Shown: positions 13,332 through 43,695, counted from the stretch's first letter. The stretch is DNA of 64,000 nt from an uncultured Methanosarcinales archaeon (GCA_964343705.1 CAYFJX010000001.1:6100-70099), one strand, 5' to 3'. Numbers and translations are program-made. The notes: generated by a model from the sequence alone, not told the origin.

Positions 13332-13358
13332 CTCGTTTGTTTGTAACAGTTATGAATC

Positions 13359-15977: not shown

Positions 15978-16069
15978 AAGATATCATACTGGAGGCAGCT
16001 CCAGGGGTTTAAAAAGCTTTAGGTGGTAATAAGAGAAAAATTAAATAGCGATAACCAGGTATAGGTATC

Positions 16070-16737: not shown

Positions 16738-16795
16738 AACCATGGTAAGGATTATCAGAAAACTATATAAGGCACCGCCCCACTCAGGTTAGATT

Positions 16796-17803
16796 ATGAC
16801 CACAATGAAAGACCTCATTGCACAAATGAGAAAAAACGCAAAAGCTACACGAAGAAAGGTTATTGTAGCTGAAGGCTGGGATGAACGATGCTTAAGAGCG
16901 TCAGCCAATATTCTCAAAGATGATGTGTGTGATCTTATTCTGCTAGGTGATCCAGAAAAAATCAATGCAGAAGCAGAAAAGTTAGGTGTTGACATTAGTA
17001 AAGCAGAGATTATCAACCCTCCAGAATATGAAAAACGAGCAGAACTGGTGAAAGAGTTGGTAGAACTGCGGAAACATAAAGGACTTACAGAAAAAGAAGC
17101 AGACAAACTCTTAGAAGATGTTAACTATTTTGGGTGTATGCTTTTACACAGGGGTGTTGCTGATGGCATGGCTGGATCTGCAATTTGCCCTACAGCTGAA
17201 CTTATGCGACCAACACTCCAAATTATCAAAACTAAAAAAGGAGCAAGCCTTGTTTCAGAAGTAGTAATCGCAGAGGATGTTAAAAATAAGCGTGTTCTTT
17301 TCTTTACTGACTGCAGTCTTAATCCTGACCCAAGTGCAGAAGATTTAGCTCAAATTGCTGTGAATGGTGGAGACTGTGCTAAAGCATTTGGCTTTGAACC
17401 AAAAATAGCCTTCCTCTCATACTCCACAAAGGGAAGCGGTGGCACTAGTGAAATTATTGAAAGAACAAGAGAAGCTGTTGAACTAGCACGAAAAAAACAG
17501 CCAGACTATGTGTTTGAAGGTGAAATGCAAGGGGATGCTGCTCTTAATCCATTTGGTGCAAAACGAAAATGCCCCGATGCGCAGATTAAAGGCGATGCAA
17601 ATGTTCTTGTGTTCCCTAACTTGACTGCTGCAAATATTTTCTGCCATCTTATGATGCAACTTTGTGACATGGGCATTGGATTAAGTGCTGGAGTTGGATT
17701 AAGAAAACCTGTGGCTGTTCTTGGAAGAAGTAATAGTGCAGAAAGTATAGAAAATCTTATTATTAGCTGTGCAATGAAGGCTAATGCTAGTGATAAAAAG
17801 TAG
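16796..17803 (+). CDS. pta: Phosphate acetyltransferase
   Basis: Close colinear resemblance to archaeal Pta (ELRKHKG, SAICPTAELMRP, LSYSTKGSG, VFPNLTAANI). 335 aa. Confidence 0.88.
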   Translation: MTTMKDLIAQMRKNAKATRRKVIVAEGWDERCLRASANILKDDVCDLILLGDPEKINAEAEKLGVDISKAEIINPPEYEKRAELVKELVELRKHKGLTEKEADKLLEDVNYFGCMLLHRGVADGMAGSAICPTAELMRPTLQIIKTKKGASLVSEVVIAEDVKNKRVLFFTDCSLNPDPSAEDLAQIAVNGGDCAKAFGFEPKIAFLSYSTKGSGGTSEIIERTREAVELARKKQPDYVFEGEMQGDAALNPFGAKRKCPDAQIKGDANVLVFPNLTAANIFCHLMMQLCDMGIGLSAGVGLRKPVAVLGRSNSAESIENLIISCAMKANASDKK

Positions 17804-17839: not shown

Positions 17840-19270
17840 ATGAAAGATATTCTTAACCAAATCAAAAAAACTGAGTGGTATAAGCAAGCTGGAAACAGTA
17901 AAGTCTACTATATTTTTCCTCCGTGCCGAGGAGCTGCTGACCATTTGGGAACTGACTTAACAATATGGTCGCTCAAGGACAGAAAGCTAATGGAGTGGGT
18001 TTCACCACGAAAGAACTTTATTGACACTGCAACAAATGCCCTTGACAAGCAAAAAAAAGATCATGCCTTTATTGACAAGCACATGGCTGTGTGTGAGAAA
18101 AAAAGTCTTGCACTGGAAAAATTCTATGAGAAATTTCTAAAGAAAGATCCATCAACATTTGATCTCAAGAAAGTCATTGCAACATTGCAAGAACTTGAAA
18201 AGCTGAGTTATGATTACTGGCTTGATGCTTACCTCTGTGATGCATTTGATCCTGAAGGTGATAAGATGCTCAAGGAGGAAATTGAAAAGCACAAGATAAC
18301 CCTGGATGAAAATGAGATAGCTGTTTTTATGCGTACTAGCTGGCTGAATTATATGCAAGAAGAACGATTAGACATGCTTAACCTTGCCAAGAAGGTCAAA
18401 GGGAAAAAGTGTTCTATAAAAAATGCGCATGTTGAACTTGAAAAACATGCAATGAAGTTTTTTTATGTTGACAACAGCTGGGAGTCAACAACAGTGTTAA
18501 TGGTTAATGATTTTGCAAAGCGACTTGATGCAACACTTCATGGAGACATAGATAAACAGATTGCAGAGTTAGAAACAAACTGGGAAGAAAAACACACGGA
18601 GTTGCAAGAAAAACATAGCATTCCTGACGAGCTTATGAATGTTTTTTATTTCTTTAGCCAGTTATTCAAACTGAGAGATCAACGAAAAAAGCACACTCTT
18701 TTGAGCAATCATGTGTATGATATGCTGTTCCAGTGTATTGGTGAGCTCTTTGACATACGCTTCAAGCACCTTGCCGTTATAGCTGCTGAAGAAATCACTG
18801 AGCAAACAACAACAGAAGACTTAAAGAAAAAAATAAGTGAGCGAGAAGACATTATTCTCGAAGTGTATTCTAAAAAGAAGACAGATTTTTATGAAGGAGA
18901 AGAAGGAATGGAAATTGACACTGCAATTCAAAAAACCTTTGCTCACAAAGGTGACACTATAAAAGGAACACCAGCGTGTAAAGGAGTGGTGCAAGGTGTT
19001 GTACGTGTCATCAGAGGAGAAGTACACTTTAGCAAATTCAATAAAGGGGAAATATTAGTTGCTCCAATGACACGGCCAGAATACTTGCCACTTATGAAAA
19101 AAGCAAAAGCAATAGTAACAGATGAGGGTGGTGTGACCTGTCATGCTGCGATTGTATCCAGAGAACTTGGTGTACCCTGTATAATTGGTACAGGTGTAGC
19201 AACACAGAAACTCCATGATGGTGAGCTTGTTGAGGTGGACGCTGATAAAGGCGTGGTGAAACGCCTATGA
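17840..19270 (+). CDS. PEP-utilizing-enzyme swivel (phosphohistidine) domain protein, paralog 1 of 7, with uncharacterised N-terminal domain
   Basis: C-terminus GEILVAPMTRPEYLPLMKKAKAIVTDEGGVTCHAAIVSRELGVPCIIGT is the PEP-utilizers mobile-domain signature with the catalytic His. N-terminal motifs shared with the paralogs. Confidence 0.75.
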   Translation: MKDILNQIKKTEWYKQAGNSKVYYIFPPCRGAADHLGTDLTIWSLKDRKLMEWVSPRKNFIDTATNALDKQKKDHAFIDKHMAVCEKKSLALEKFYEKFLKKDPSTFDLKKVIATLQELEKLSYDYWLDAYLCDAFDPEGDKMLKEEIEKHKITLDENEIAVFMRTSWLNYMQEERLDMLNLAKKVKGKKCSIKNAHVELEKHAMKFFYVDNSWESTTVLMVNDFAKRLDATLHGDIDKQIAELETNWEEKHTELQEKHSIPDELMNVFYFFSQLFKLRDQRKKHTLLSNHVYDMLFQCIGELFDIRFKHLAVIAAEEITEQTTTEDLKKKISEREDIILEVYSKKKTDFYEGEEGMEIDTAIQKTFAHKGDTIKGTPACKGVVQGVVRVIRGEVHFSKFNKGEILVAPMTRPEYLPLMKKAKAIVTDEGGVTCHAAIVSRELGVPCIIGTGVATQKLHDGELVEVDADKGVVKRL

Positions 19271-20115
19271 GCAGAGAAACACTTGAAACGAATTTATATA
19301 CTGATGTGTGGGATGATTTTTCACGAAGATACGCGTACATGCGAACACCTGTAACCCCTTCTGTAAATGATGTAAAAATTATTGAAGAATATCTCAAGAA
19401 GATCCTAGAAACCAATTCTCAACCAAGTGTGCTTATTCTTGGTGCAACCTTTGCTTACAGGAAGATGATTGCAGAAAACAACATACCTGTCACCTTGGTT
19501 GACTTGAGCAGGCAAATGTATGATGTAAACAGCAAGATTCTTGACAATGAACTTGGATGTCCAGAGCGTACTGAAAAGCTTATCATTGCAAACTGGATGG
19601 AAATGGATCTACATCAGGAGTTTGATCTTATTATTGGAGATTTTGTTGTTAATAACATCAAAGCTGAACTTAAAGAACAGTTCCACGCACAGATAGCAAA
19701 ACACATGACACCCAATGGCTTTTTTGTGACTCGTATTATGAACCAACCAAGGAACTTGGATCCTGTTGAAGATATGTTTGCACGATTTAAGGATAAGGAA
19801 ATTAACAGGGAAACAACCAATGAATTATTGTTTGATGCACTGTGCCATTTTGGTATTGATAGAGAAAAGAACATTCTTGTTAACAAACAGCGGTGGCATA
19901 AAGTTGTTGAAGCTGCTGAGGAGTATCCGTTTATGAAAAAGTTGATTAAACACTGTGAAGAAAACGTGCCCATGGGAGATAAGGAGTGGAGTATTCTCTC
20001 AGATGCTGATCAAGAAGCAGAATTGCGAAATGCTTATAAGGTATGTGCTATTCGCTATGGTAAAGATTACATGTATTCAGATGCATGTCCAACATATGTG
20101 CTGCAACGTGTGTGA
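19267..20115 (+). CDS. Class I methyltransferase-like protein, paralog A of 4
   Basis: VLILGATFAYR (degenerate motif I), VTLVDLS, FDLIIGDFVVNNI (motif IV), MTPNGFFV. ATGA overlap with the upstream swivel-domain gene. Confidence 0.6.
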   Translation: MSRETLETNLYTDVWDDFSRRYAYMRTPVTPSVNDVKIIEEYLKKILETNSQPSVLILGATFAYRKMIAENNIPVTLVDLSRQMYDVNSKILDNELGCPERTEKLIIANWMEMDLHQEFDLIIGDFVVNNIKAELKEQFHAQIAKHMTPNGFFVTRIMNQPRNLDPVEDMFARFKDKEINRETTNELLFDALCHFGIDREKNILVNKQRWHKVVEAAEEYPFMKKLIKHCEENVPMGDKEWSILSDADQEAELRNAYKVCAIRYGKDYMYSDACPTYVLQRV

Positions 20116-20136: not shown

Positions 20137-20943
20137 ATGACAAAAGTAGTTGAACAATGGCGCCAAGGTTTTGTGCATTTCTGGAAGTATTACCTTCCCC
20201 CAGCGAGAGCATCACCCTCTGACCTGGAGTTCATTAAAAAGAAGATTCTTGAAAAAGGCAAGGACGTAAAAGTTCTTATTCTTGGTTCAACCTCAGAATA
20301 TAGGAATATCTGTGGAGAGCTTGGTATTCCAGTGACCTGTTTTGATTTTAGTGAATATAATTATAACTACCTAAAAGATGAAGTCAAGAAAATGCCACAG
20401 GAACGTTATGTCAATGGCAATTGGTTCACACACAAACTTGATGAGCAGTTTGACATTATTCTTGGAGATGTAATTATCAATCTACAAGACAAGAAAAAAC
20501 TGCCAAATCTTTTTAGAAACATAGCAAGCTGGCTAAAACCAAATGGGTTGTTTATGCCAAGAACCTATATCAGAGATAAGGATGAAACATGTACAGCAGA
20601 AGAAGCAATCAAAAGATACCGTAAAAAAACAGGACAAAGGTTGTATACTGGATCAACTAGAGATCTGTACCTAGCTGGATATGATTTTGAAAAAGAAACA
20701 GTAAATTTTAGGAAATTGTGGGCAATGTTGATAGATTTGCATGCACAAAAAATTGTTACAGATGAAGAGTTTGAAGATTACAAAAAGTTATCTTTTGATA
20801 CAGATATGCATTTTTACATGCCTATCCGAGAAGAGTTTGACAAACTATTCGAAGAATTCTTTACTATCAAAGAAATCATTCACGGTCCAGAACCTTATTT
20901 GAAAGAACGTATGTGGCCATTGCATGTGTTGACAACAAAGTGA
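20137..20943 (+). CDS. Class I methyltransferase-like protein, paralog B
   Basis: VLILGSTSEYR, VTCFDFS, FDIILGDVIINL, LKPNGLFM. Colinear with paralog A. Confidence 0.6.
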   Translation: MTKVVEQWRQGFVHFWKYYLPPARASPSDLEFIKKKILEKGKDVKVLILGSTSEYRNICGELGIPVTCFDFSEYNYNYLKDEVKKMPQERYVNGNWFTHKLDEQFDIILGDVIINLQDKKKLPNLFRNIASWLKPNGLFMPRTYIRDKDETCTAEEAIKRYRKKTGQRLYTGSTRDLYLAGYDFEKETVNFRKLWAMLIDLHAQKIVTDEEFEDYKKLSFDTDMHFYMPIREEFDKLFEEFFTIKEIIHGPEPYLKERMWPLHVLTTK

Positions 20944-21029: not shown

Positions 21030-21224
21030 ATGAATACAACTGTTGCTGTTAAAGAAGACACATTTGCATTATTGAAAGATGTAAAAGAAAAAACAGAAGC
21101 ACCTAGTTTTGATGAGGTAATAAAAAAGTTGATCATGGAAACAAAAAAACCAAAAAAAAGTCTTAGAGGATTGGCAAAAAATACACCTGAATTTGTGAGG
21201 GAAGAAATTGACCGTTTTGCTTGA
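21030..21224 (+). CDS. vapB: VapB-like antitoxin
   Basis: 64-aa ORF immediately upstream of, and overlapping, a PIN-domain gene. Two direct repeats ATAAGTTATAA lie in its promoter. Confidence 0.5.
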   Translation: MNTTVAVKEDTFALLKDVKEKTEAPSFDEVIKKLIMETKKPKKSLRGLAKNTPEFVREEIDRFA

Positions 21225-23783: not shown

Positions 23784-25217
23784 ATGAGACTTATAAAGCT
23801 ACAAACAAAGGGCAATTGCTATCCTGATGTTAATATTCAAGCAATTGCGGTGATGTTGTTGTGTGATTATCACAAGGCATTTGGTGTATCCTTTGGTTTG
23901 GATGTTGTTACTACTTTTGAAAATGAGACAATGGTCTGGTATGGTTATGATGAAGAGTATGAACGGCTAAAAAAAGAAACAAGCGCTCTTCTTATGGAAA
24001 AACCAGAGTTGGCAAAAAAATGTCAAAAGAATTTTTTTGAAGGAGCAAAAGTATTCCTGGAATTTATTAAGAAAATCAACCAAACAAACTTTAGCAAGCT
24101 CAGCAACAAAGAACTCCAAGATTTATATGAAGACTATTTTAACAGAAATCGTGCATTAGGTATTTGGGGAGAGCCATTGCCACATTACACGCGAGAAGAC
24201 GTACCAAAATTTCTGCTCAAGTGCCTAAATGAAATAAGCAAAACCCCAAGCGATGATCTAAACCTACTTACTGCACCAAACTATGTTTCTTTCACAAAAC
24301 AAGAGGAGATGGACTTACTTAAGATTGCCATACAGATCAAAGCAGATCCAGAAAATACAGAACTCAAAGAACAACTCATTAAAGAACACACCAAGAAATG
24401 GTTTTGGATACCTTATGATTATGGTGTAACAACATGGGATGAAAAGCATTTCATGGATGAGCTTGAAGAGGTACAAGATCCAGAAAAAAAACTCAAAGAA
24501 ATAGAAATCACATATAAGGAACTACCAAAAAAACAACAAGCTCGACTTAAAGAACTAGCCATTGATCCACATACAGAAGAGATTTTCCAAGCACTACAAA
24601 TTTGCACTATTCTCATGGATTACAAAAAAGAAGTATTTACTAAAGCACATTATTCAACACGTCGCTTGCATAAAGAAATAGCACAGCGACTTGGACTCAC
24701 ATATGAACAAACCAAAGTACTGCTCATAAAAGAAGTAAGCCAAGCACTCTTAGAAAACAAACCCCCTACACCTGAAGAACTTGATGGACGACTCAAATTT
24801 AGTGTATTAAAACTCAGCAAGGATGGAGAGTACAGCTTTGTAAGTGGTGAAAAAGCAAAGGAATGGGTCAAAAGAATACAAGCAGATGAAGAGAAGTCAG
24901 ATGAACTCACTGGCTTTCCTGCATGCAAAGGACAATACACTGGTACTGTTCGGTGTATTCTTGATGCAAGAAATATTCATGAACTAAAAAAAGGAGAAGT
25001 ATTAGTCACATACATGACAAGCCCTGACTACACTATTGGCATGAAAAAAGCAGGAGCTATTGTAACAGATGAAGGTGGCATTAGCAGTCACGCGGCGATT
25101 GTGTCCCGTGAGTTAGGAGTGCCATGTGTAATTGGAACAAAGCACGCAACGCGTGTACTAAAAACAGGTGATAGAGTTGCAGTTGATGCAGAAAAAGGAG
25201 TCATTACAAAACTATAA
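23784..25217 (+). CDS. PEP-utilizing swivel-domain protein, paralog 2
   Basis: C-terminus GEVLVTYMTSPDYTIGMKKAGAIVTDEGGISSHAAIVSRELGVPCVIGT, plus FWIPYDY. The ORF-track start at 23622 overlaps the PLP gene, so the start was moved to Met55 (MRLIKLQ). Confidence 0.7.
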   Translation: MRLIKLQTKGNCYPDVNIQAIAVMLLCDYHKAFGVSFGLDVVTTFENETMVWYGYDEEYERLKKETSALLMEKPELAKKCQKNFFEGAKVFLEFIKKINQTNFSKLSNKELQDLYEDYFNRNRALGIWGEPLPHYTREDVPKFLLKCLNEISKTPSDDLNLLTAPNYVSFTKQEEMDLLKIAIQIKADPENTELKEQLIKEHTKKWFWIPYDYGVTTWDEKHFMDELEEVQDPEKKLKEIEITYKELPKKQQARLKELAIDPHTEEIFQALQICTILMDYKKEVFTKAHYSTRRLHKEIAQRLGLTYEQTKVLLIKEVSQALLENKPPTPEELDGRLKFSVLKLSKDGEYSFVSGEKAKEWVKRIQADEEKSDELTGFPACKGQYTGTVRCILDARNIHELKKGEVLVTYMTSPDYTIGMKKAGAIVTDEGGISSHAAIVSRELGVPCVIGTKHATRVLKTGDRVAVDAEKGVITKL

Positions 25218-25233
25218 CAAAAAACCTGAAAAG

Positions 25234-26106
25234 ATGACTAACCCCACAGAACCTTGGACAGAAGAACAGTCTGTAGCAGCGCGAGCTTCACGCGGTGAAG
25301 GGACCTCAGCCCCAAACAAAACAGAATGTGCTGTGTATGCTGATGAACTAGAAAAAGCACTGCGTGGCAAAAATAAAACGCGAGTTCTTGTTCTTGGTGC
25401 AACACCTGAACTACGAGACATTGCAATTCAACTTGGTGCCGAGACTATTGCAGTTGATTTTACCCAAGAAATACTTTTCAAACTGACCAATGTAATGAAA
25501 CATAAAGACTCAGCACTAAACAAGCTGATTCTTGCAGACTGGTTAGAACTAGGCAATGTATTGGTAAAAGATTCATTTGACGCTGTACTTGCAGATGCAT
25601 CATTTAACAATGTTACACCTGAAAATCACCCCCTGCTTCTTGAAATATTACATAAACTTTTGAGGCCAGGTGGTGTGTTTATCACACGCCATGTTACTTT
25701 TGCACCACGAGCAATGCTTCGTGCAATTACTGAAATTACTGATGAATACAGAGCAGGAAAGAACACAACCCTTGGTTTTTTTACTGAGATTGGTTTACAA
25801 AGCCCAGTTATGCCAGAAGCATACAATATCAAAACAAAACAGTTTAAGTGGAGTATTGTTTGTGAAAAACTCCCCTTGCTTATGGAAGGTTTGCCTGAAG
25901 AGAAAAAAGCAGTAGTTGAAAAACTTGCAACACAAGCACAAACCTTGACACAAACTATTTTCCCACAGGAAGAATGGCATAGCATGCTTGGCCAGTTTCT
26001 AAAAGTAAAAAAAGTGATTGCACTCCCCCATTGGCCATACACACAAAATGTACCAATATATGTTGCTGAAAAAGAATCAGTTACTTCTTTGCAAACTCCC
26101 ACATAA
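25234..26106 (+). CDS. Class I methyltransferase-like protein, paralog D
   Basis: VLVLGATPELR, IAVDFTQ, FDAVLADASFNNV, LRPGGVFI. Start trimmed to MTNPTEPW to avoid overlap with the upstream gene. Confidence 0.55.
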   Translation: MTNPTEPWTEEQSVAARASRGEGTSAPNKTECAVYADELEKALRGKNKTRVLVLGATPELRDIAIQLGAETIAVDFTQEILFKLTNVMKHKDSALNKLILADWLELGNVLVKDSFDAVLADASFNNVTPENHPLLLEILHKLLRPGGVFITRHVTFAPRAMLRAITEITDEYRAGKNTTLGFFTEIGLQSPVMPEAYNIKTKQFKWSIVCEKLPLLMEGLPEEKKAVVEKLATQAQTLTQTIFPQEEWHSMLGQFLKVKKVIALPHWPYTQNVPIYVAEKESVTSLQTPT

Positions 26107-26809
26107 ACTTAAAGTGTTTTCTGTAGCCATCTGCGACTTCTTTGTTCTGTATAACAATTGCCATGATGTCTGTTGTTGCAAGAAGAATAACAACTAAGTC
26201 CCCGCAAACATCAACCATCACAGGACTTTTGAATTTGTTAGGGAGGTATTTAATGGTCCATTTCTGTGTTGAAATCTTTTTTCCCCTTGCTGACTCGTAA
26301 TACAGCCCATACACATGCATACCTTTTTTCAGCCGAGCTTTATCAAACTTAATATGACGATGCTTAAGATATTTCCTGTTAAGCCCTTGCCCACCAAGAG
26401 CATAAATATCCTTTTCTTGTTCCAACATCATCCCATAGGCACTCATTACCCCTTCTGCTCCTTTGAATACAAACACATCTTGCTTTTCCTTACGCATGTT
26501 GTAATCAAGTACAAGTTCTGGCATCACAGTCTTAACATGTTCCTGGCGCTCATGTAACATTTCAAGAATTTTGTGAGGGGATGAGGGTTCATAGAACTTC
26601 TTAGCTCCTTCAACCACTGAACTTACAAGGCCTTTCTGCACTAATCGTTCAATAATGTCATACGCATTTACCCGATGCACTCCTGCTTTTCTTGAAATTT
26701 CATTAACACTGGCTGAACCAATACGAAGCATGGCAAGGTAGACTTTTGCTTCATTTGCTGTGAGTCCTGCTGCAAGCAGTGCATCATATTTAGTGGTTGA
26801 AATAGCCAT
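26081..26809 (-). CDS. TrmB-family transcriptional regulator
   Basis: N-terminal wHTH (LTANEAKVYLAMLRIGSASVNEISRKAGVHRVNAYDIIERLVQKGLV) plus a TrmB-like C-terminal domain. Confidence 0.75.
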   Translation of the reverse strand: MAISTTKYDALLAAGLTANEAKVYLAMLRIGSASVNEISRKAGVHRVNAYDIIERLVQKGLVSSVVEGAKKFYEPSSPHKILEMLHERQEHVKTVMPELVLDYNMRKEKQDVFVFKGAEGVMSAYGMMLEQEKDIYALGGQGLNRKYLKHRHIKFDKARLKKGMHVYGLYYESARGKKISTQKWTIKYLPNKFKSPVMVDVCGDLVVILLATTDIMAIVIQNKEVADGYRKHFKFMWEFAKK

Positions 26810-27098: not shown

Positions 27099-28604
27099 AT
27101 GACACTTACAATCATCCATGGACACACACAGAAGAATCTCAAGAAGTGGACAGGCAAAAAATGGTACCACCAACGTTTTGATGGGTCCCCCTACCTATTG
27201 CACTTTATTGCTGAGGCTGAGATTGCAAAAGAACCACGCAAATTAGATGGCCACAACTATGTACATTACTGCTTTTTTGATAATGGCAAGGCAGACTGGT
27301 ACATTGAAATGGTGGACATCAAAAGAATTTACACCAGTGTAATCACCGCAGGAAAGAGCAATCCAAAAATTAGCACGCAGTTTCTTGCTGATTGGAAAAA
27401 TGATGAACATGAATTCTATGAAAAATGCATAGAGATAGGTAACACCAATCTCTCAGAGCTTCGTGATACTGAGCTTCTTGCATTGCATGATGATTTCCTA
27501 CATATAACCCTACGACGTAACAGCAGCAGCTCAGTTATTGATGGTTTTGCACTTGGAACAGACACACTTATTGCAGAAAAAATAAAGGTAGTGTATGAAA
27601 CTTCCAAGCTCAAAGAGACAATGAGATCAACAGAAGTATTTTCCATACTCACAGCCCCAGTTCATCTTTCATTTATCAATCATGCAGAAGTTGCCCTCCT
27701 GAAACTAGCAGTAGCAGTCAAGAAAGACCCCAACAGAAAAGAAGACCTACTTGCAGAACATCAAAAGAACTTTTTTTGGATTCGAAATAATTATGTTGAT
27801 GCAAATGTACTAGATACTGTATACTTTAACGAAGAATTAGACAAGATTTTTTCAATTAACATTGATGTTGAAGAAGAAATAAAGAAAATAGAGGAAACAC
27901 CTCAAGTAAACAAAAATAGAAAAGCAGAGCTTATGAAAAAACTTACATTAGATGATGAACTCAAACTGTTAATTAAAGTGTCAGAAGATTTTACCTATTG
28001 GCAAGATGAAAGAAAAAAGGCAACATTCTGGACTGCACACTATGCAACACTAATCCTTGAAGAAATTGGCAAGAGGGTAGGAATAAGTGCAGATCTTCTC
28101 AAATACGCAAGCCCACGGGAAATCGCTGCAGTGTTCAAAAAAGAAATCACCCAGGAAGAGCTCACAGAACGACAAAAGAATAGCGTGTTTTATTGGGATA
28201 CTGAGGGACATGAATGTCTCAGTGGAGAAGAGGCAGAAAAAGTAAAACAAACAATTTTAGGCACCACTGATTTATCAGATGTTGATGACTTCAGAGGCCT
28301 CACTGCAAGCATGGGTAAGGCAACAGGCACAGTAAAAGTCCTTAAATCTGCAAAAGAAGTTGACAAAGTGGAAGAAGGTGACATCCTTGTGGCAGTAATG
28401 ACAAGACCTGATTATGTTCCCGCCATGAAAAAAGCAGCCGCCATAGTAACAGATGAAGGTGGTGTAACGTGTCACGCAGCAATAGTCAGTAGGGAACTTG
28501 GCATCCCATGTATAATCGGCACCAAAATTGCCACAAAGGTTTTAAAAGATGGAATGCAAGCAGAGGTCAACGCTAATCATGGCTGGGTGAAAATAGTAAA
28601 ATAA
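27099..28604 (+). CDS. PEP-utilizing swivel-domain protein, paralog 3
   Basis: KKWYHQRF, NFFWIRNNY, WQDERKK, and C-terminus GDILVAVMTRPDYVPAMKKAAAIVTDEGGVTCHAAIVSRELGIPCIIGT. Confidence 0.75.
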   Translation: MTLTIIHGHTQKNLKKWTGKKWYHQRFDGSPYLLHFIAEAEIAKEPRKLDGHNYVHYCFFDNGKADWYIEMVDIKRIYTSVITAGKSNPKISTQFLADWKNDEHEFYEKCIEIGNTNLSELRDTELLALHDDFLHITLRRNSSSSVIDGFALGTDTLIAEKIKVVYETSKLKETMRSTEVFSILTAPVHLSFINHAEVALLKLAVAVKKDPNRKEDLLAEHQKNFFWIRNNYVDANVLDTVYFNEELDKIFSINIDVEEEIKKIEETPQVNKNRKAELMKKLTLDDELKLLIKVSEDFTYWQDERKKATFWTAHYATLILEEIGKRVGISADLLKYASPREIAAVFKKEITQEELTERQKNSVFYWDTEGHECLSGEEAEKVKQTILGTTDLSDVDDFRGLTASMGKATGTVKVLKSAKEVDKVEEGDILVAVMTRPDYVPAMKKAAAIVTDEGGVTCHAAIVSRELGIPCIIGTKIATKVLKDGMQAEVNANHGWVKIVK

Positions 28605-28628: not shown

Positions 28629-30098
28629 ATGACAAAAACAACAGGCAATCAAGCAATAACAAAAGAAACCATCTTCAAACAGATTAAGAAGAAGTGGTAT
28701 GCGCAAGGATTTAACTGCACACCCTTACTTCTAGGTGGACCTGGCCTCAGCGGATTTGATGTCAAGCCAACATTAGGAGATAATTATAAGAGCTTTCTGT
28801 GGGAATTCAAAAACGAGTACGGTAAAATGTACTATGCTGTTGATGACCTAGAACGACTTGGCAAACTACTTGTTGCCAAAATCAAAAAAGAAAAAAACTA
28901 CATTGACATGCTTAGGAAAAAAGATCAAAAACGGCAAGAAAAAACAATACAAGATGTTATTGCAATCCCAGAAAAGGAATACAAAAACCTGTCTGACAAA
29001 GAATTATACAATCTTCTTCGTAAAGCAGCAAAAGCAAACAGAGACGTTGGAAAAATATCCCACATAATAGAAGGATTTTCTCTCACAGCAGACACTGAAA
29101 TAAAAGAACGACTCGAGAAGTATGTAAAAGATAGAAAAAAACTCAACAAATACCTCTCACTTCTATCCACACCAACAGAGCGCTCATTTATCAACGAACG
29201 AGAAGAGGACCTACATGAGATTGCACAGATTACAGACAAGGACAAACGAAAAAAAGCAATAGAAAAACATCTTAAGAAATTTTACTGGGTGCAAAACACG
29301 TATGCTGGACGTGTACGACTTACACCAGAAGAAATAGAAAAAGAATTAAGCACACTTCAGTATGAAGCAATTGACTTTGCAAAAATAGAACAAGAAAAAA
29401 ATGAAGCACTCAAACTCCTGCAACTTGATGAAGAACTAACCATGCTACTTCAGGCATCTGTTGACATCACAAGCTGGCAAGATGAAAGAAAAAAGAACAT
29501 TTTCATTAACATTGATGTAATAGAAGGAGTTATTGAAGAGATAGGTAAGCGATTAGAAATTGACCATAAACTTCTGAGGTACATTACTTACCATGAAGCA
29601 GTTGAAGGGGATATATTCTTGCAAGAAAATCTCAAGGAAACACTCACAACACGACGAGCAGGAATGATCCATTTTGCTGATGACACAAACACAGATGGAA
29701 TTCTTATTGGAGACGAGTACAAAGAATTCCATGAACGTATAGGTGAGGAAGAAAAAAAGCAACTTGAAACAAAAGAATTCAAAGGCATGGCTGCTTGTAC
29801 TGGCATAGCAATTGGAAAAGTTCGCGTTTGCACTAGTCTACAAGCAATACAAGATTTTAAAGAAGGAGAAGTGCTTGTTGCATCCATGACTCGTCCAGAA
29901 TATCTTCCAGCAATGAAAAAAGCATGTGCCATAGTTACTGACGAAGGAGGGATTACCTGCCACGCAGCTATTGTGTCCCGGGAACTTGGTATTCCCTGCA
30001 TCATCGGCACCAAGATTGCAACTAAGACCCTTCAAGATGGTGATACAGTTGAAGTTAAGGCAAACCATGGATTAGTTATAATCAGGGAAAAGGGATGA
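28629..30098 (+). CDS. PEP-utilizing swivel-domain protein, paralog 4
   Basis: KKWYAQGF, KFYWVQNTY, WQDERKK, and C-terminus GEVLVASMTRPEYLPAMKKACAIVTDEGGITCHAAIVSRELGIPCIIGT. Confidence 0.75.
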   Translation: MTKTTGNQAITKETIFKQIKKKWYAQGFNCTPLLLGGPGLSGFDVKPTLGDNYKSFLWEFKNEYGKMYYAVDDLERLGKLLVAKIKKEKNYIDMLRKKDQKRQEKTIQDVIAIPEKEYKNLSDKELYNLLRKAAKANRDVGKISHIIEGFSLTADTEIKERLEKYVKDRKKLNKYLSLLSTPTERSFINEREEDLHEIAQITDKDKRKKAIEKHLKKFYWVQNTYAGRVRLTPEEIEKELSTLQYEAIDFAKIEQEKNEALKLLQLDEELTMLLQASVDITSWQDERKKNIFINIDVIEGVIEEIGKRLEIDHKLLRYITYHEAVEGDIFLQENLKETLTTRRAGMIHFADDTNTDGILIGDEYKEFHERIGEEEKKQLETKEFKGMAACTGIAIGKVRVCTSLQAIQDFKEGEVLVASMTRPEYLPAMKKACAIVTDEGGITCHAAIVSRELGIPCIIGTKIATKTLQDGDTVEVKANHGLVIIREKG

Positions 30099-30111: not shown

Positions 30112-31614
30112 ATGAAAGCAATTAAGAACGCTGTTATTCCAAAAGAAAAAGTATTTGAGCAAGTCAAGAACAAGTGGTATACACAAGGCTTTAATGGAGC
30201 CCCTATTCTTTCTGCACCAGCTGGCACATTAAGTAGTTTTGACATTGGTGAAACCTTAGGAGATGAGTTTCAACACCAACTTCTTGAGTTCAAAGAAGAT
30301 GTTGCAAAATTACACTACCCTGTTGATGACCTAGAACGCCTATCAAAAATCATACTTACAAAACTTGAAAAAGATAAGAACTTCTTTGAAAAAGTGGAAA
30401 AAAAATACCAAGCAACATTTGACAAAGCATTTCAAGACTTACTTGGAGAAGCACAAACACCTTTTGCTTTTGCAGAGGGGTTGACAGATATTTCCAACAC
30501 AGAACTTGTTGCACTCATTAACAAAGCTTTGGATGTTGTTCGCCTGTCAGTTGGACAAGGCCATATCATAGAAGCTTTTGCATTAACAACTGACAAGCAG
30601 CTTTTGGAATCACTCAGAAAATATATCCCCAATCAAAAAAAACTCAATAGTGCATATGCAAAACTTTCATCCCCCACAAAAAGATCATTTATAGGCAAAA
30701 GTGAAGCAGACCTTGGAAAAATAGCGTGTATTAAGGATGATAAGAAACGAGATGCTGCTATACAAAAACATATAGAAAAATTCTTCTGGATCAAGAACAG
30801 TTTTGCAGGTAAAGTCACCATTTCCCCTGAAGATATTGAAGAGGAATTACCCCTGTACTACAACTACAAAGAAACAGACCTTGGTGCTTTGGAGAAAGAA
30901 CAAAAAGAAATGATCAGTGAGTACAAAATAACTGGAAAAACCCTAACCTTGTTACAAGCCACAAAGTATGTTGCATTATTTCAAGACAATCGAAAAGTGA
31001 ACATGCTCAGGAGCTTTCACTATGGAGATATCCTAATAGAAGAACTTAGCAAGCGGTTAGGAATTGACATTAAACTGGTGAGATATTTGTCTGCATACGA
31101 ATTTAATGAATCAGTATTTACTGATACCACACTAAAAAAGACACTTGAAGAACGACGCAGAGGAACAATAATGTACCATACTCCTAGCGGTGAGGGGATA
31201 CTAACAGGAGATGATTACAAGAAATTCTGCGCGGAATTGCAAAAGGCAAGAGGTGTAGAAATTGATCTAAAACAATTAAATGGCTTATCTGCGTCAGTGG
31301 GAACTGCTTTGGGCAAAGTAAGTATTTGCAGTAGCCTAGACGACATCAACAATTTCGAAAAAGGCGATATTCTTGTTGCATCAATGACCAAGGTTGAGTT
31401 CTTACCTGCAATGAGAAAAGCAGCAGCCATTATTACTGATGAAGGTGGCATCACATGCCATGCAGCAATAGTCAGCAGAGAATTTGGCATCCCTTGCGTT
31501 ATTGGCACCAAACATGCAACAAGAGTTTTGCACAATGGTGATCTTGTCGAAGTACGAGCAAACCATGGAGTGGTAATCATTAAGGAAAGAACCATAGAAC
31601 GGAGTCAACAGTAG
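30112..31614 (+). CDS. PEP-utilizing swivel-domain protein, paralog 5
   Basis: NKWYTQGF, KFFWIKNSF, FQDNRK, and C-terminus GDILVASMTKVEFLPAMRKAAAIITDEGGITCHAAIVSREFGIPCVIGT. Confidence 0.75.
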   Translation: MKAIKNAVIPKEKVFEQVKNKWYTQGFNGAPILSAPAGTLSSFDIGETLGDEFQHQLLEFKEDVAKLHYPVDDLERLSKIILTKLEKDKNFFEKVEKKYQATFDKAFQDLLGEAQTPFAFAEGLTDISNTELVALINKALDVVRLSVGQGHIIEAFALTTDKQLLESLRKYIPNQKKLNSAYAKLSSPTKRSFIGKSEADLGKIACIKDDKKRDAAIQKHIEKFFWIKNSFAGKVTISPEDIEEELPLYYNYKETDLGALEKEQKEMISEYKITGKTLTLLQATKYVALFQDNRKVNMLRSFHYGDILIEELSKRLGIDIKLVRYLSAYEFNESVFTDTTLKKTLEERRRGTIMYHTPSGEGILTGDDYKKFCAELQKARGVEIDLKQLNGLSASVGTALGKVSICSSLDDINNFEKGDILVASMTKVEFLPAMRKAAAIITDEGGITCHAAIVSREFGIPCVIGTKHATRVLHNGDLVEVRANHGVVIIKERTIERSQQ

Positions 31615-32965: not shown

Positions 32966-34111
32966 ATGGGTCAAAAAAAACGCATAAAAGACGCTCTTAA
33001 ACAACTCCAAGGAGGAGATGCAAGAACAACTACTGTAGAACTTGAATACCCAAAGAAGATCCGTACAAAAAGTAAGCCACGCGTCTGGTACAATAAGTTT
33101 GTTTTTGCATTGCAAAAAAAACTTGTACCAAGCCACTTCAAAAATTGGCTTCTGGGCACAACAGGAATGAATGTTGGACACGACTGCTGTATCCCTCACG
33201 ATATTTCTTTTGATCCTTACTTTCCAGAACTGATTACACTTGGACCAGGTACGTTAGTAGGTGGTGGTTCAACCCTCAAAGCACACACAGTAAAAGATAA
33301 CAAACTCACACTTGGTAAGATAACCTTTGCTGAACGAGCAATGTGCGGAGGAATGTCTCTAATTCTTCCTGGCGCAGGAATTCAGAAGAATTCAATTCTT
33401 AACATGCATGCGACACTGGACAAAGTTATGCCAGAAGCAGAACTATGGGCAGGTGAACCTGCAAAGTGCACCATGAAGTTTACACCTGAGCTTGTAGATA
33501 AATTCTTTAAGAAAGCAACAACAGACCCTGCTGAGCAAAAGAAATACTACAAAGAAGCAAAAGCAAAGATTCAAGCATTTATCAAAGATCCCAAGCAATC
33601 CTACTTAAAGATTTACTACAATGGAAACCGCGCAGGCGCAGGTAATGACTGGTTTAGGGCACGAAGTACCTTCCGCATTTTTTATAATGGAATTATCACA
33701 GAATTTACCCGACTCCTCCCACACTGCTGGTTCAAAACAGTACTACTTAAAATGATGGGTGCCAAGATTGGCAAAAATTGCTACATTGGAAAAGGAGTTG
33801 TGTTTGATCATATTTATGGCGACATGGTGACATTAGAAGATAATGTGCGTGTTGATGACTATGCTTATTTTGATGGCCATGAATACACTCTTACTCAAAC
33901 AGTATTTGGGCGTGTACTATGTAAAAAAGGTTCCTGGATAAAAAAACACACGTTGATTCGATGTGGTTGTATTATTGGTGAAGGCGCTATTATTGAGAAA
34001 AAAAGCCTTGCTGGTAAAGAAATCCCTGCTGGAGAGGTCTGGGGTGGTGTACCAGCAAAACTCATTAGAAAAGTATCTGACAAAGACCGCGAAGCAAAAA
34101 AACAGTTCTAA
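32966..34111 (+). CDS. Tandem left-handed beta-helix (hexapeptide-repeat) acyltransferase-like protein
   Basis: Two runs of [LIV]-G-x-x-x-x hexapeptide repeats, residues ~60-160 and ~250-370. Confidence 0.65.
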   Translation: MGQKKRIKDALKQLQGGDARTTTVELEYPKKIRTKSKPRVWYNKFVFALQKKLVPSHFKNWLLGTTGMNVGHDCCIPHDISFDPYFPELITLGPGTLVGGGSTLKAHTVKDNKLTLGKITFAERAMCGGMSLILPGAGIQKNSILNMHATLDKVMPEAELWAGEPAKCTMKFTPELVDKFFKKATTDPAEQKKYYKEAKAKIQAFIKDPKQSYLKIYYNGNRAGAGNDWFRARSTFRIFYNGIITEFTRLLPHCWFKTVLLKMMGAKIGKNCYIGKGVVFDHIYGDMVTLEDNVRVDDYAYFDGHEYTLTQTVFGRVLCKKGSWIKKHTLIRCGCIIGEGAIIEKKSLAGKEIPAGEVWGGVPAKLIRKVSDKDREAKKQF

Positions 34112-34162: not shown

Positions 34163-35467
34163 ATGATACTAGAGGTGATACTAGGATTCTGTATACTTTC
34201 AACTACATTATTACTCTTCCAGCAAAAACGGAAGTATAAAAGGCTCAAGAAAGAAATAGAAGATAGTGAATCAGGGGAGATCTGGGACCCAAAAAAATGG
34301 ATGCCAGATAAAGAATCACATTCTAAGCTTGAAGAGGAAATTGAAAATGCACCTCTTGAACCAACCATGCTTAGTTCAAAAAAGCCTTCACAGTACGCTA
34401 TTGATAATAGCCCACAAAGTGAGTATAGTAAAGACCCCACTAAGGAAGGAATGCGTGGTGTTCGAGAAAATCTTTCTGATGCAAGACAACGAATGCCAAC
34501 ACCAAAATCCCTTAAAGAAAAAATAGGAACTATGCTCAAAAATGTGAAAAACATTGCATACAATGGTTTTGACAATACTGTTGGTTTGCCTATTGCACTG
34601 TACCAAAATCATAAAACAAAAAAGCATTTTAAGAAAAACCCAAATAGTAAAGATCCTCTGACATACCTTATGCATGGGTTAGGTCAAAACAGGGGAAGTC
34701 AGTGGCGGCGAGCTCGTGATTTACGTAAAAGAGGTATGCATGCTTATCATTTGAAAGGAAATCATGATCTTGGAAATAAAGGATCCACAGATGAAGCTTT
34801 TGATCAAATAGAAGAGTTTCATGAAGATACTGGACTAGAACGAAAATCAAAAGGACACTACAGAGCATTTAGTGGGCACAGTAGCGGGGGTAATACTGGT
34901 ATTTCCATGGCAAGTGATAAGCGCATAAAAAAGTATGGAATTAACCATGTGCAGGCTGTTGCGCCAACACCTGCTGGCTTTGAAAAATTACGAACTGCAG
35001 AAGTAAAAGCAGCTGGGATTATTATCAATGTTGATCATGAAGATACTCGAAAAAGCAAGCCTGCTCGAAAAGAAGCAATCAGACTTCATCGAGAAAAACC
35101 TAATGTGCCAGTGTATGTTGTTTCGGGTGAGCATGATGCACTTGTTCCACCTGATGATGCAGTATACAAACATGCAAAAGGGTATAAAGTACTGAAAGGA
35201 GAACACACCACTCATTTTGGTACAAGTGGTGTCAATGAAAAAGCAAATAAGGAGCTTAATGAGTTGCTAACTGATAAGTCAGGGTACCGACCAACTGAGT
35301 GGTACAAGCCAAAAACAGGCTCTGTGAAGGAACACAAACGTGACTTTTTAGGACGTGATGAACATGGGCGAAAAGAGCTGCAGAAATGGGAACAAAACAA
35401 AAAAAAGTACCAGGGAGAAAAGCCTGTTGTTGAATATGAAGTTAAGAAACAGAAAAAAGCCGCATAA
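34163..35467 (+). CDS. Lys-rich alpha/beta-hydrolase-fold protein with N-terminal TM
   Basis: HGLGQN oxyanion-type motif, nucleophile elbow FSGHSSGGN (GxSxG), later acidic and His residues (DHED, GEHDALVP, HTTHF). Confidence 0.5.
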   Translation: MILEVILGFCILSTTLLLFQQKRKYKRLKKEIEDSESGEIWDPKKWMPDKESHSKLEEEIENAPLEPTMLSSKKPSQYAIDNSPQSEYSKDPTKEGMRGVRENLSDARQRMPTPKSLKEKIGTMLKNVKNIAYNGFDNTVGLPIALYQNHKTKKHFKKNPNSKDPLTYLMHGLGQNRGSQWRRARDLRKRGMHAYHLKGNHDLGNKGSTDEAFDQIEEFHEDTGLERKSKGHYRAFSGHSSGGNTGISMASDKRIKKYGINHVQAVAPTPAGFEKLRTAEVKAAGIIINVDHEDTRKSKPARKEAIRLHREKPNVPVYVVSGEHDALVPPDDAVYKHAKGYKVLKGEHTTHFGTSGVNEKANKELNELLTDKSGYRPTEWYKPKTGSVKEHKRDFLGRDEHGRKELQKWEQNKKKYQGEKPVVEYEVKKQKKAA

Positions 35468-36631: not shown

Positions 36632-37948
36632 ATGAATCAAAAGAACCAAAAAGAACTTATCAAGAAAGTAAACACCATGAAATGGGAGCATTGGTTGTAT
36701 AGAAACTTCCCTCCTTTTAGTGGCCATATTATTGCTTCTGGAGCATTACCTTCTGAATATGAACGCATGGGGTACCCGGCAAAGGGTGTTGAGGGTTTTA
36801 TTTATGACAGTAACAATTGGTGGCGTTGCATGCCTGTATACGATGCAAGTGCAGATTGGGTAGATGAGTACTTACAAAAGCACACTGTTTTCGAAACAAC
36901 CAAAGCAATCCAGAAACATTATGATAAATACAAAAACAGAATTAAAGAGATTGCTGCTGACACAAGTAGCGACCCAATTGAACAATTTAGGGAAGTATGT
37001 GATATTCTTAGGCCAATCTGTGTGTGGATTTGGATTTGCCACCAGTTTGAAGTATGGATAAAGAAGGAAGTAAAAAAACAAATCCCTCCCTTTCTTAAAA
37101 AAGGAGAAGATCTTGATTTGTATGTGGGGGATATAAGTCTTCCAACAAAAAAGAACCACCATGAGCTCATGGCAGACGCCCTGATTGCAGGACAAGACCC
37201 AAAAGAAGTACATAAAGAATATGGATGGATCAAAGCACGAGGTAGAAGTGGATTTGCAAAAGGGTACACACTTGAAGAAGTAAAGCAAATGCAAAAAGAC
37301 TTACAAAAGAAAAAGAGCCACAAACTTAAACCAAAAAAAGTACCAGCTGAACTTGAAGAACTTCAAAAGCAATTGCAAGAATTAGTGTGGTTTCGCTTAT
37401 TCCGGACAGATATTGCGTACGAATTTGTATATAATTCACACCCACTCTTTGAAAGAGTTGCAAAAGCACGGGGTATTGAAAAAGTAGAAGACTACCTGTA
37501 CACCGACATTCTTGATACAACTAAGGAACCAAAAAAGTATGACCCCAATAATTATGCAGTACTAAAAGAAGGCACCACCCTTCTTATTGTCGACCACGCA
37601 GTCTTGGAACATGATGAAGTCAAAGACACTGAACTTAAAGGAGTGACTGCAATGAGAGGCAAAGCAACAGGCACAGCAAAAATAGTTATGAATGTTAATG
37701 ACATGCACAAAGTCAAGAAAGGAGATATTCTTGTAACTCCCATGACTATTGCACCTTATGTTCCTGCAATGGAGCGATCAGCAGCGTTTGTAACTGACGA
37801 AGGAGGTATTACCTGCCACGCAGCTATTCTCTCGCGAGAAATGAGCAAGCCATGCATTATTGGAACTAAAAAAGCAACCAGTGCATTTAAAGATGGTGAT
37901 GTTCTCGAAGTAGACGCTGATGCAAGCATTGTTAAGAAAATACGATAA
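36632..37948 (+). CDS. PEP-utilizing swivel-domain protein, paralog 6 (most divergent)
   Basis: C-terminus GDILVTPMTIAPYVPAMERSAAFVTDEGGITCHAAILSREMSKPCIIGT. N-terminus has MKWEHWLYRNF. Confidence 0.7.
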   Translation: MNQKNQKELIKKVNTMKWEHWLYRNFPPFSGHIIASGALPSEYERMGYPAKGVEGFIYDSNNWWRCMPVYDASADWVDEYLQKHTVFETTKAIQKHYDKYKNRIKEIAADTSSDPIEQFREVCDILRPICVWIWICHQFEVWIKKEVKKQIPPFLKKGEDLDLYVGDISLPTKKNHHELMADALIAGQDPKEVHKEYGWIKARGRSGFAKGYTLEEVKQMQKDLQKKKSHKLKPKKVPAELEELQKQLQELVWFRLFRTDIAYEFVYNSHPLFERVAKARGIEKVEDYLYTDILDTTKEPKKYDPNNYAVLKEGTTLLIVDHAVLEHDEVKDTELKGVTAMRGKATGTAKIVMNVNDMHKVKKGDILVTPMTIAPYVPAMERSAAFVTDEGGITCHAAILSREMSKPCIIGTKKATSAFKDGDVLEVDADASIVKKIR

Positions 37949-39859: not shown

Positions 39860-39881
39860 GGTGATGACTAACCCGAGGAAC

Positions 39882-41318
39882 ATGGAAATCAGCAAGTTTA
39901 CAAACAAGAAATGGGTCATACAGGGTGCTGTCATCACACCTCACCTGAACGCGTTTGCAGTCGATGCACTCACCAAGGGCCTCCAAGATATTACAGGACA
40001 TGGTTTGAGTGTTATTCTCACGTTTATGACACAAGAAGGAGAGTACAGCCATTGGGTACTTGATGAAGAATCATTGAATACAGAGGGAAAATGGTATGAT
40101 GATCACCCTGAAGAACTCAAGAAACTCTTCATGGCATGGGAAAAAGCGCGTGATGTCTATTATGAATACATTGAAGGCATCATGGAAAAAGGTGTTACTG
40201 ACCCCATTACAGAATACAAGCAATTTAGAGAACATTATCAAAATGCGTACGCTCATGCTCTTGTGACAGAACACTTTATTGTGTGGGGTGACAAGATACT
40301 TGCAACAATTCTTGAAAAGATACCTAAAGAAAAAAGAAAACAGGTTGAAATACTGACTGCACCAATCAAACACACTTTCTTAAATGATGAGGAGCTTGGC
40401 CTTCTTAAGATAGGATTACAATTTAAGCAAACAGGAAAAATCTCTGAAGAAGACTTGAAGAAACACACTAAGAAATTTTTCTGGATCAGAAACAATTACA
40501 AGAACACTAAGCCAATGAGTTTACAAGAATTTGAAAAACGTTTGCATGCATCCATTGCAGAACTAACTGAAAAACAAGTTACAGCAAAGATTGCAGAGTT
40601 AGAAACATATGAGCAAGATCTAATTAAGAAAAAAGAACAAGCTCGAGAAAAGCTTGGCTTGGCAAAGGAAGATGAGGAAAAGCTTGAACTTCTTTCTTTA
40701 GTTGCATGGTGGCATGACCAACGTAAAAAAGGAAATCTTCTTGGCGATCATGTTGCAGGATTGTTTTTTGAAAAAGCGGCAAAAGACCATACCGCTCCCT
40801 TAATTGATATTAAATTTATGCTGCCAGATGAATTCTTAAAGTTTCTCGAAACAGGAGAGTACAATAAAGATGAAATACAAGAACGAAAAAAAGCATGTGT
40901 GTACATAACAGCAAATACAGGTGAGAAAAGCATGCATACTGGGAAGACCTATGAAGAACTTAGTGAAACAGTACTTGAACAAGAATATGAAGAAAAAATA
41001 AAGGATGTTCGTGGAATGACTGCTTCGTATGGCCATGCAAAAGGTCCAGTAAAAGTAGTTCTAAACCCCAAGGATACTGATATAGAAAAAGGAGACGTTC
41101 TTGTAACAAGTATGACAAGGCCTGAATATGTCCCTCTTATGAAAAAAGCAGCAGCAATAGTAACAGATGAAGGAGGAGTTACAAGTCATGCAGCTGTAAT
41201 TTCACGAGAATTGGGAATACCTTGTATTGTTGGTACACGTATTGGAACAAAGGTACTTAAGGACGGCATGGTTGTTGAAGTCCGTTGTAACCATGGCCTT
41301 GTTAAGATTTGTGATTAA
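39882..41318 (+). CDS. PEP-utilizing swivel-domain protein, paralog 7
   Basis: NKKWVIQGA, KFFWIRNNY, WHDQRKK, and C-terminus GDVLVTSMTRPEYVPLMKKAAAIVTDEGGVTSHAAVISRELGIPCIVGT. Start set at the ATG positioned for the TATA box. The ORF track starts at a GTG at 39861. Confidence 0.7.
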   Translation: MEISKFTNKKWVIQGAVITPHLNAFAVDALTKGLQDITGHGLSVILTFMTQEGEYSHWVLDEESLNTEGKWYDDHPEELKKLFMAWEKARDVYYEYIEGIMEKGVTDPITEYKQFREHYQNAYAHALVTEHFIVWGDKILATILEKIPKEKRKQVEILTAPIKHTFLNDEELGLLKIGLQFKQTGKISEEDLKKHTKKFFWIRNNYKNTKPMSLQEFEKRLHASIAELTEKQVTAKIAELETYEQDLIKKKEQAREKLGLAKEDEEKLELLSLVAWWHDQRKKGNLLGDHVAGLFFEKAAKDHTAPLIDIKFMLPDEFLKFLETGEYNKDEIQERKKACVYITANTGEKSMHTGKTYEELSETVLEQEYEEKIKDVRGMTASYGHAKGPVKVVLNPKDTDIEKGDVLVTSMTRPEYVPLMKKAAAIVTDEGGVTSHAAVISRELGIPCIVGTRIGTKVLKDGMVVEVRCNHGLVKICD

Positions 41319-43270: not shown

Positions 43271-43338
43271 CTTTTATATGAAACATGGAGCGATACACCC
43301 TATATCGAGAAAAACAAAATGGCATTACCAAAAGAAAT

Positions 43339-43690: not shown

Positions 43691-43695
43691 GGAAA

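Follow-up and report, generated by a model that had tools for sequence, protein, structure and literature searches.

Dikinases that carry phosphate on a histidine of a swivel domain can be divided over two subunits. Those characterized include HpeHI, CreHI, and phenylphosphate synthase PpsAB, in which one subunit is an ATP-grasp protein (~40 kDa) and the other joins a domain like the rifampin-binding domain (RIF-BD) of rifampin phosphotransferase (RPH) to the swivel (PMC12167813). The gene considered here, the target, lies at 17840..19270 in a 64,000-nucleotide stretch, the window, from an uncultured Methanosarcinales archaeon (GCA_964343705.1 CAYFJX010000001.1:6100-70099) and encodes a protein with an N-terminal domain (N-domain) and a swivel. 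A sequence-only reading of the window held that in all known families the swivel moves between two catalytic domains of the same chain, or else is the PTS EI N-domain. Since two-component dikinases are known, that premise is incorrect. The division of a swivel-histidine dikinase into ATP-grasp and acceptor subunits is already known, and the findings call for no new phosphodonor logic.

The target is probably (roughly three chances in four) the acceptor subunit in a small-molecule dikinase that is ATP-dependent, of RPH type, and split. It belongs to an uncharacterized branch of a known enzyme type, rather than representing a new principle of moving phosphate. The observed basis is domain homology, motif alignment, and the genomic coupling or fusion of these genes with ATP-grasp in relatives. 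We infer the reaction chemistry, a single ATP-grasp subunit shared by the paralogs, and a gene for it elsewhere in the source genome.

The target gene and its paralogs

The target is a genuine gene of 476 amino acids (aa) on the plus strand. Its sole Pfam match is PF00391, the swivel domain of phosphoenolpyruvate (PEP) utilizers, at residues 400-471 (E = 9e-28). Residues 1-365 have zero Pfam matches, and the scan of the protein returned neither PF01326 (ATP-grasp) nor PF02896 (PEP barrel). The tripeptide GGK occurs in none of the seven paralogs in the window. The sequence-only reading was thus right that these swivel proteins lack an in-cis phosphodonor domain and PEP barrel. The swivel motif of the target is TDEGGVTCH435AAIVSRE (T427 to H435 being T-D-E-G-G-V-T-C-H), with the His435 codon at 19142-19144. 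The catalytic His of the target thus has the T/S-x-x-G-G-x-x-x-H context; among 16 aligned family members this His is invariant, and the D/K motif of the acceptor site is conserved.

Searches with tblastn and Pfam place seven paralogs of one architecture on the plus strand between 17.8 and 41.3 kb, an array of ~24 kb. Their PF00391 E-values, 1e-22 to 9e-28, are far beyond chance. These are the proteins that had been described as 440-530 aa long; they measure 438-501 aa. The second copy has 477 aa from the ATG at 23784, not 531 aa, a reading over-extended from the GTG at 23622. Between paralogs of the window, N-domain identity averages 21% (range 13-41%) and swivel identity 53% (45-65%). The closest homologues of the target come from metagenome-assembled genomes (MAGs) of Woesearchaeota; this and the intein-containing release factor aRF1 of the window place its source among the DPANN archaea. 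Over the N-domain, orthologues of the target from other MAGs share 48-59% identity with it. This identity, set beside the divergence within the window, indicates that the paralogs are old and individually conserved.

The swivel also retains the PEP-synthase signature GGxT(C/S)HAAIVSR intact, including T433 and H435 (19136-19144). The Thr of this signature is a regulatory phosphorylation site in PEP synthase (PEPS) and pyruvate phosphate dikinase (PPDK). Among the window open reading frames (ORFs) scanned against Pfam, none was found to encode a regulator of the type acting on this Thr in those enzymes.

An RPH-type acceptor domain

The AlphaFold2 model, built from 16 family members, has a mean confidence (pLDDT) of 91 for the whole target and 94 for the N-domain alone. 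The predicted N-domain consists mainly of long helices, with a small sheet formed by N- and C-terminal strands. No ATP-grasp match was obtained for this predicted fold, so the cryptic ATP-grasp that the sequence-only reading named as its own refutation was not found. In a Foldseek search of the PDB, the six top matches are all RPH-Lm (E = 2e-11 to 8e-10, 463-548 aligned columns), followed by swivel-only proteins at E >= 2e-6. In the predicted structure, the RIF-BD fold lies directly N-terminal of the swivel, as in RPH.

The full-length family profile aligns with RPH-Lm residues 647-866 (E = 3e-25) and reaches ~100 residues into its rifampin-binding domain. In this alignment, R279-D280-Q-R-K283 of the target falls on R666-E667-Y-P-K670 of RPH-Lm. 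The RPH mutants R666A and E667A lose the second phosphotransfer and keep the ATP-side reaction (PMC4844700). By predicted fold and profile alignment, the N-domain is thus a divergent homologue of the domain with which RPH binds rifampin, its acceptor domain, and retains the phosphotransfer motif. By this match, which includes the catalytic motif R-[DE]-x-x-K, a predicted acceptor catalytic domain is present in cis, contrary to the claim that the proteins have none.

The ATP-grasp partner in related loci

Relatives were sampled as one genome per species, giving the 77 best-matching species loci, whose ORFs were searched by profile (L numbers below denote related loci, within this set or outside it). 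Their hosts are DPANN archaea (Woese-, Micr-, Nano-, and Pacearchaeota) and candidate phyla radiation bacteria (CPR/Patescibacteria). Of the 77 loci, 23 have a standalone PPDK_N ORF, with lengths of 254-380 aa if the shortest, truncated where its contig stops, is counted and 282-380 aa otherwise. It is on the strand of the array in all 23, within 100 nt of a paralog in 14, and located after the paralogs in 15. ATP-grasp is fused to paralogs in another five loci, so that 28/77 loci, and 15/32 of those of at least 18 kb, have it in one form or the other. Arrays have three or more copies in 40/77 loci, five or more in 28/77, and 12 at most; no array has more than one ATP-grasp.

The fused forms are telling. 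ORFs in L044 (830 aa) and L062 (803 aa) have the order ATP-grasp, N-domain, swivel. In a Woesearchaeota MAG (CALDOJ010000037.1, L014:473-13078, plus strand), a 4201-aa ORF consists of eight N-domain and swivel units with one C-terminal ATP-grasp. L006 has the order PPDK_N ATP-grasp (316 aa), ten tandem paralogs with stops overlapping starts, acetyltransferase, unknown protein, phosphate acetyltransferase (Pta), and HAD hydrolase; an orthologue of the target (P0008, 48% identity) is among the ten.

The partner ATP-grasp of the relatives belongs to PF01326. The standalone proteins have a mean column identity of 49% and carry AGGKGASLGEM, and the database holds at least 7991 of them. At E <= 1e-3, the N-domain profile retrieves 4732 cluster representatives, of which 686 reach E <= 1e-30. 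Their length is mostly 440-530 aa, and some are multi-module fusions; further multi-module proteins in this search have 983-2309 aa and 2-5 N-domain stretches.

In L011 (1218-2160) and L012 (2681-3630), the PPDK_N ATP-grasp apparently occupies two consecutive ORFs (146-165 aa and 135 aa); in L012 the pair directly follows a 509-aa swivel protein. Either a genuine additional split or an artefact, by frameshift or assembly, could account for the arrangement. Small or split ATP-grasp ORFs of this kind, hidden in the window, were ruled out by tblastn and a six-frame profile search.

Proposed mechanism and its weak points

In the proposed mechanism, a separate ATP-grasp subunit of ~310 aa, of PPDK_N type with AGGKGASLGEM, would bind ATP and pyrophosphorylate or phosphorylate His435 on the swivel. 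The charged swivel would then swing back to its own N-domain. There the phosphate would pass to a hydroxyl, or another nucleophile, of a bound small molecule, helped by R279, D280, and K283. The net reaction would be ATP + X -> AMP + Pi + X-P. Because the swivels are conserved and the N-domains strongly diverged, the locus may be read as several modules, each specific for its acceptor, that draw on a single donor subunit. The conserved swivels of the seven paralogs would dock on a common ATP-grasp, and their diverged N-domains would bind different acceptors. A shared donor with different acceptors would be the simplest reading of the array.

Several results weigh against this assignment. The N-domain profile alone has no significant match among PDB sequences, so that the homology emerges only from the full-length profile and the structure, and N-domain identity to RPH is just 10-16%. 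The motif Arg at -1 is not kept among the paralogs and is shifted to +2 in most of the seven; D, R(+2), and K(+3) are kept in 6/7. No PPDK_N-type ATP-grasp was found in the window, either by tblastn with the ATP-grasp of a relative (best E = 5.8) or by a full-length profile search of all six-frame segments with filters off (best E = 1.2). The syntenic relative L003/L004 (GCA_030651375.1) has no ATP-grasp in its locus either. The donor subunit of the target is therefore an inferred one. In other genomes, those of CPR bacteria, standalone ATP-grasp genes lie among housekeeping genes, unlinked from arrays, so absence from the window is no evidence of absence from the genome. The sequence-only reading had offered a choice between a new kind of N-domain and phosphate arriving in trans. 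The former does not hold, the N-domain being of the known RPH type, and arrival in trans is the best-supported reading.

Pta and other routes to the swivel

Pta is encoded immediately upstream of the target, as the sequence-only reading noted, with a verified gap of 36 nt from its end at 17803. It recurs in the operons of Woesearchaeota and Nanoarchaeota relatives and is embedded on the strand of the array in 10/77 species loci, plus L004 and L006/L007. In L030, the order is paralog, Pta, paralog, ATP-grasp, with 4-nt overlaps; in L047, eight paralogs are followed by Pta and ATP-grasp. The linkage at operon level is no coincidence. Papers on Woesearchaeota genomes count Pta as no more than a component of the Pta-AckA pathway (PMC8421398). 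Its position beside an O-acetyltransferase suggests that it supplies acetyl-CoA. A dedicated Pta-coupled class of paralogs was considered and ruled out by similarity clustering, which puts the Pta neighbors in at least 10 clusters.

The proximity of Pta had been taken as a hint that acetyl-phosphate is the phosphate donor. It would then phosphorylate the swivel His without ATP or ATP-grasp, and acyl-phosphate to histidine transfer is established in another superfamily, that of succinyl-CoA synthetase and ADP-forming acetyl-CoA synthetase. The 36-nt spacing, the same-strand operons, and the missing ATP-grasp in the window fit this proposal, and L018, L030, L047, and L075, which have Pta and no acetyltransferase in the stretch retrieved, leave some room for a direct acyl-phosphate link. 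However, Pta and ATP-grasp share operons in L006, L030, L047, and L056, and 67 of the 77 loci do without Pta. The paralogs next to Pta, scattered over the similarity clusters, are not one orthologous group, and the target orthologues in L004 and L006 are not adjacent to it. The group-transfer potential of the swivel phosphohistidine also exceeds that of acetyl-phosphate, and the acetyl-CoA-dependent O-acetyltransferase often found beside Pta gives it a simpler role. Since Pta coexists with ATP-grasp and is not specific to any paralog, acetyl-phosphate is an unlikely donor, and its chances are slim. A broader version, in which the organism has no ATP-grasp partner and acetyl-phosphate from Pta charges all seven swivels, or one module interconverts acetate and acetyl-phosphate, has an outside chance, because ATP-grasp is missing from both the window and L003/L004 and 13 independent loci show linkage of Pta to arrays. 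If true, it would be an acyl-phosphate-driven phosphohistidine system without ATP-grasp, in which a PEP-synthase-type swivel is combined with the chemistry of succinyl-CoA synthetase and ADP-forming acetyl-CoA synthetase. Alternatively, some paralogs might phosphorylate carboxylates such as acetate to acyl-phosphates, which Pta would convert to acyl-CoA for the acetyltransferase; this conjecture has little to recommend it. It would agree with Pta in minimal operons with 4-nt overlaps (L030), with the acetyltransferase co-located in six loci, and with our own estimate that ATP + acetate -> AMP + Pi + acetyl-P is thermodynamically favorable, but Pta has no constant partner class among the paralogs, and the characterized relatives (RPH, HpeH, CreH, PpsA) all phosphorylate hydroxyls. 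Such a route would take over acid activation from acetate kinase or AMP-forming acetyl-CoA synthetase.

Two further explanations leave Pta aside. An enzyme of the cell that is PEP-dependent, or a full-length one of PEP-synthase type, could charge the swivel in trans in place of a dedicated ATP-grasp. The swivel is closest to that of archaeal PEP synthase (E = 4.5e-26; the value for RPH is 1.7e-13) and has the complete signature with its regulatory Thr, and the window lacks an ATP-grasp. Yet standalone ATP-grasp genes are recurrent same-strand, often overlapping neighbors of the paralogs, fused to them in the five loci above, and the arrays have no linked PEP barrel except for ordinary PEP-synthase-like ORFs in L086 and L087, which makes charging by PEP highly improbable. 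Least probable of all is that the proteins are non-catalytic, acting as dikinase-derived regulators or phosphorelay sensors. A PPS-like regulator, PspR, has reportedly been described in Haloferax, and TrmB regulators are present in many of these loci. Against such a role, the catalytic His and the acceptor-site D/K are kept across the 16 aligned members, the paralogs have no DNA-binding domain, and they form tight operons with ATP-grasp, HAD phosphatases, and transferases. The split dikinase with an ATP-grasp donor in trans remains the preferred reading.

Neighboring genes and island boundaries

Table 1. Features of the target, its array, and the neighboring genes, in window positions
Feature	Position	Strand	Remarks
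Pta-like phosphate acetyltransferase	16796..17803	+	335 aa; PF01515, E = 5e-91
Target, N-domain	17840-18934	+	aa 1-365; putative acceptor-binding domain
Target, R279/D280/K283 codons	18674-18688	+	
Target, swivel phosphohistidine domain		+	aa ~368-476
Methyltransferase-like protein	19267..20115	+	ATG overlaps target stop (ATGA)
Methyltransferase-like paralogs	20137-20943; 21582-22385 (-); 25168-26106		
VapB-like/PIN and nucleotidyltransferase/HEPN toxin-antitoxin-like pairs	21030-21585; 35526-36576		Inserted in array
Cys/Met-metabolism pyridoxal phosphate (PLP) enzyme	22388-23695	-	Sits with methyltransferase-like genes
Paralog 2	23784..25217	+	477 aa; N-domain and swivel
TrmB-family regulator	26081..26809	-	Inside array
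Paralog 3	27099..28604	+	501 aa
Paralog 4	28629..30098	+	489 aa
Paralog 5	30112..31614	+	500 aa
SGNH/GDSL (AlgX-like) proteins	31616-32926; 37969-39588 (-); 41333-43030 (-)		436-565 aa; interleaved with paralogs
Hexapeptide-repeat O-acetyltransferase	32966..34111	+	C-terminal part resembles GAT/MAT/Vat/CatB/YvoF; N-terminal ~250 aa unmatched
434-aa protein	34163..35467	+	Travels with acetyltransferase in related loci
Paralog 6	36632..37948	+	438 aa; most diverged copy; D-x-R-K motif not recognizable
Paralog 7	39861..41318	+	485 aa; GTG start

Other genes of the array are listed in Table 1. The hexapeptide-repeat O-acetyltransferase recurs beside Pta in related loci; the 434-aa protein that follows it has no informative match. 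We rejected a sugar-1-phosphate nucleotidyltransferase role for the hexapeptide protein, a role that would have hinted at anomeric sugar kinases, as only the left-handed beta-helix of O-acetyltransferases was detected. A TrmB homologue is present in 14/77 related loci.

The four methyltransferase-like paralogs have weak, mostly sub-threshold Pfam matches and read ILG(A/S)T(P/S)E where the glycine-rich S-adenosylmethionine loop is expected; through its ATGA overlap, one of them is translationally coupled to the target. The three SGNH/GDSL proteins each have an unmatched N-terminal extension of 120-250 aa. Neither these three proteins, nor the four methyltransferase-like genes, nor the PLP enzyme have matches in the loci retrieved from other genomes, and the methyltransferase/PLP block is confined to the version of the island in this genome. 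Pairs of the toxin-antitoxin type also occur at similar places in L003/L004 and L013, as RHH/PIN and nucleotidyltransferase pairs.

HAD-type phosphatases (~200-260 aa) are encoded in 12/77 loci, 11 of the 13 ORFs lying directly beside a paralog, and in none of the ORFs of the window. Their pairing with swivel genes is seen in L091:2367-10930 and also in L006, L013, L031, L047, and L075, and suggests kinase/phosphatase couples. The TrmB regulator, the sugar-type acetyltransferases, the SGNH/AlgX-like proteins, and the HAD phosphatases are compatible with a role of the array in modifying carbohydrates or scavenged metabolites. The RPH-, Vat-, and CatB-like chemistries are likewise compatible with the inactivation of xenobiotics; rph-, vat-, and cat-like matches have been recorded in a survey of the CPR resistome (PMC8651080).

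The flanks of the dikinase island, window 12561-17803 and 43250-45239, are conserved in L003/L004. They comprise SprT-like, aRF1, and Pta on the left and L37ae, Pcc1, prefoldin, UPF0147, and MscS on the right. The island is ~25 kb long in the window and ~9 kb in GCA_030651375.1, which, given the conserved flanks, shows the region to vary while its place in the chromosome stays fixed. The archaeal release factor aRF1 (13359-15977, minus strand, 872 aa) contains an intein that has HTH and LAGLIDADG domains; its orthologue in L003/L004 has 364 aa and is intein-free. Farther along, 51635-57095 encodes a membrane protein of the exosortase/archaeosortase family (325 aa), then a 745-aa protein with a CARDB domain and a 709-aa unmatched protein, and is probably a cell-surface sorting system.

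Significance

No description of the arrays, the layout of one ATP-grasp to many acceptors, the polyproteins, or the Pta linkage was found in the literature searched, where the organization of many acceptor modules per ATP-grasp appears undescribed. The family is a large uncharacterized clade, whose hosts, among the 77 best-matching loci, are for the most part ultra-small archaea (DPANN) and bacteria (CPR). Its recurrent array partners are Pta, O-acetyltransferase, HAD phosphatases, and TrmB regulators. The retention of 7-12 such genes in minimal genomes implies an important function. Candidate roles are the salvage or activation of scavenged compounds and the inactivation of host-derived or environmental toxins. 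The identities of the acceptors would fill a gap in DPANN and CPR physiology and would also provide a case from nature in which a single donor subunit supplies many kinases, each with its own acceptor.

Comparison with known systems

Over the two domains together, no structure matches better than RPH (PDB 5FBS, 5FBT, 5FBU, and 5HV1), which shares the order of acceptor domain followed by swivel. The target would work like the C-terminal two-thirds of RPH, and fused relatives repeat the full RPH order of ATP-grasp, acceptor, and swivel. Unlike the target, RPH is a single chain of 865 aa with its ATP-grasp in cis and a rifampin-binding domain of ~428 aa. Scores of the target against the models of rifamycin-inactivating phosphotransferase, NF041857 and NF000283, are far below the cut-offs (64.9 bits vs 999 and 40.9 vs 1700). 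All NCBIfam matches, to PEP synthase, PPDK, RPH, PigC/RedH, and PRK08296, are below cut-off and cover only the C-terminal 100-160 residues.

With PEP synthase and PPDK, the target shares a swivel and His motif closest to those of the archaeal PEP synthase, and the partner ATP-grasp of its relatives is of the same family, PF01326. It differs in having no PEP/pyruvate TIM barrel, and the acceptor domain is unrelated. The domain order also differs, the swivel of PEPS being placed between ATP-grasp and barrel, and the match to the PEP synthase/PPDK model is limited to the swivel (132 bits vs a cut-off of 598). The glucan, water dikinases (GWD/PWD) resemble the array in domain order: their substrate region, His domain, and C-terminal ATP-grasp correspond to the order in the 15 of 23 loci with ATP-grasp last and in the L014 polyprotein. 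In contrast to these enzymes, no CBM45 or glucan-binding modules were detected. Carbohydrates can be substrates of swivel dikinases, as GWD demonstrates.

The nearest known parallels are HpeHI, CreHI, and PpsAB. As in these systems, an RPH-like acceptor domain is followed by the swivel on one chain, and the ATP-grasp would be a separate subunit; in relatives, the acceptor gene adjoins the ATP-grasp gene. The target is smaller (~53 kDa, with an N-domain of ~365 aa) than HpeH (~71 kDa), and it lacks the ~45% identity over ~600-640 aa that unites the HpeH/CreH/PpsA clade, whose substrates are phenolic. Against the PRK08296 models (600-633 aa), presumably of PpsA type, only the swivel matches, at 74-111 bits vs cut-offs of 578-730. 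Its swivel is PEP-synthase-like, and its hosts are DPANN and CPR lineages, not aromatic-degrading Proteobacteria or Actinobacteria. The neighbors of the target are Pta, methyltransferase-like, SGNH, and acetyltransferase genes, with no aromatic-catabolism genes nearby. The one-to-one pairing of subunits in the known enzymes is replaced by up to 12 acceptor paralogs for at most one ATP-grasp. The target would work like HpeH, CreH, and PpsA and stands outside their clade.

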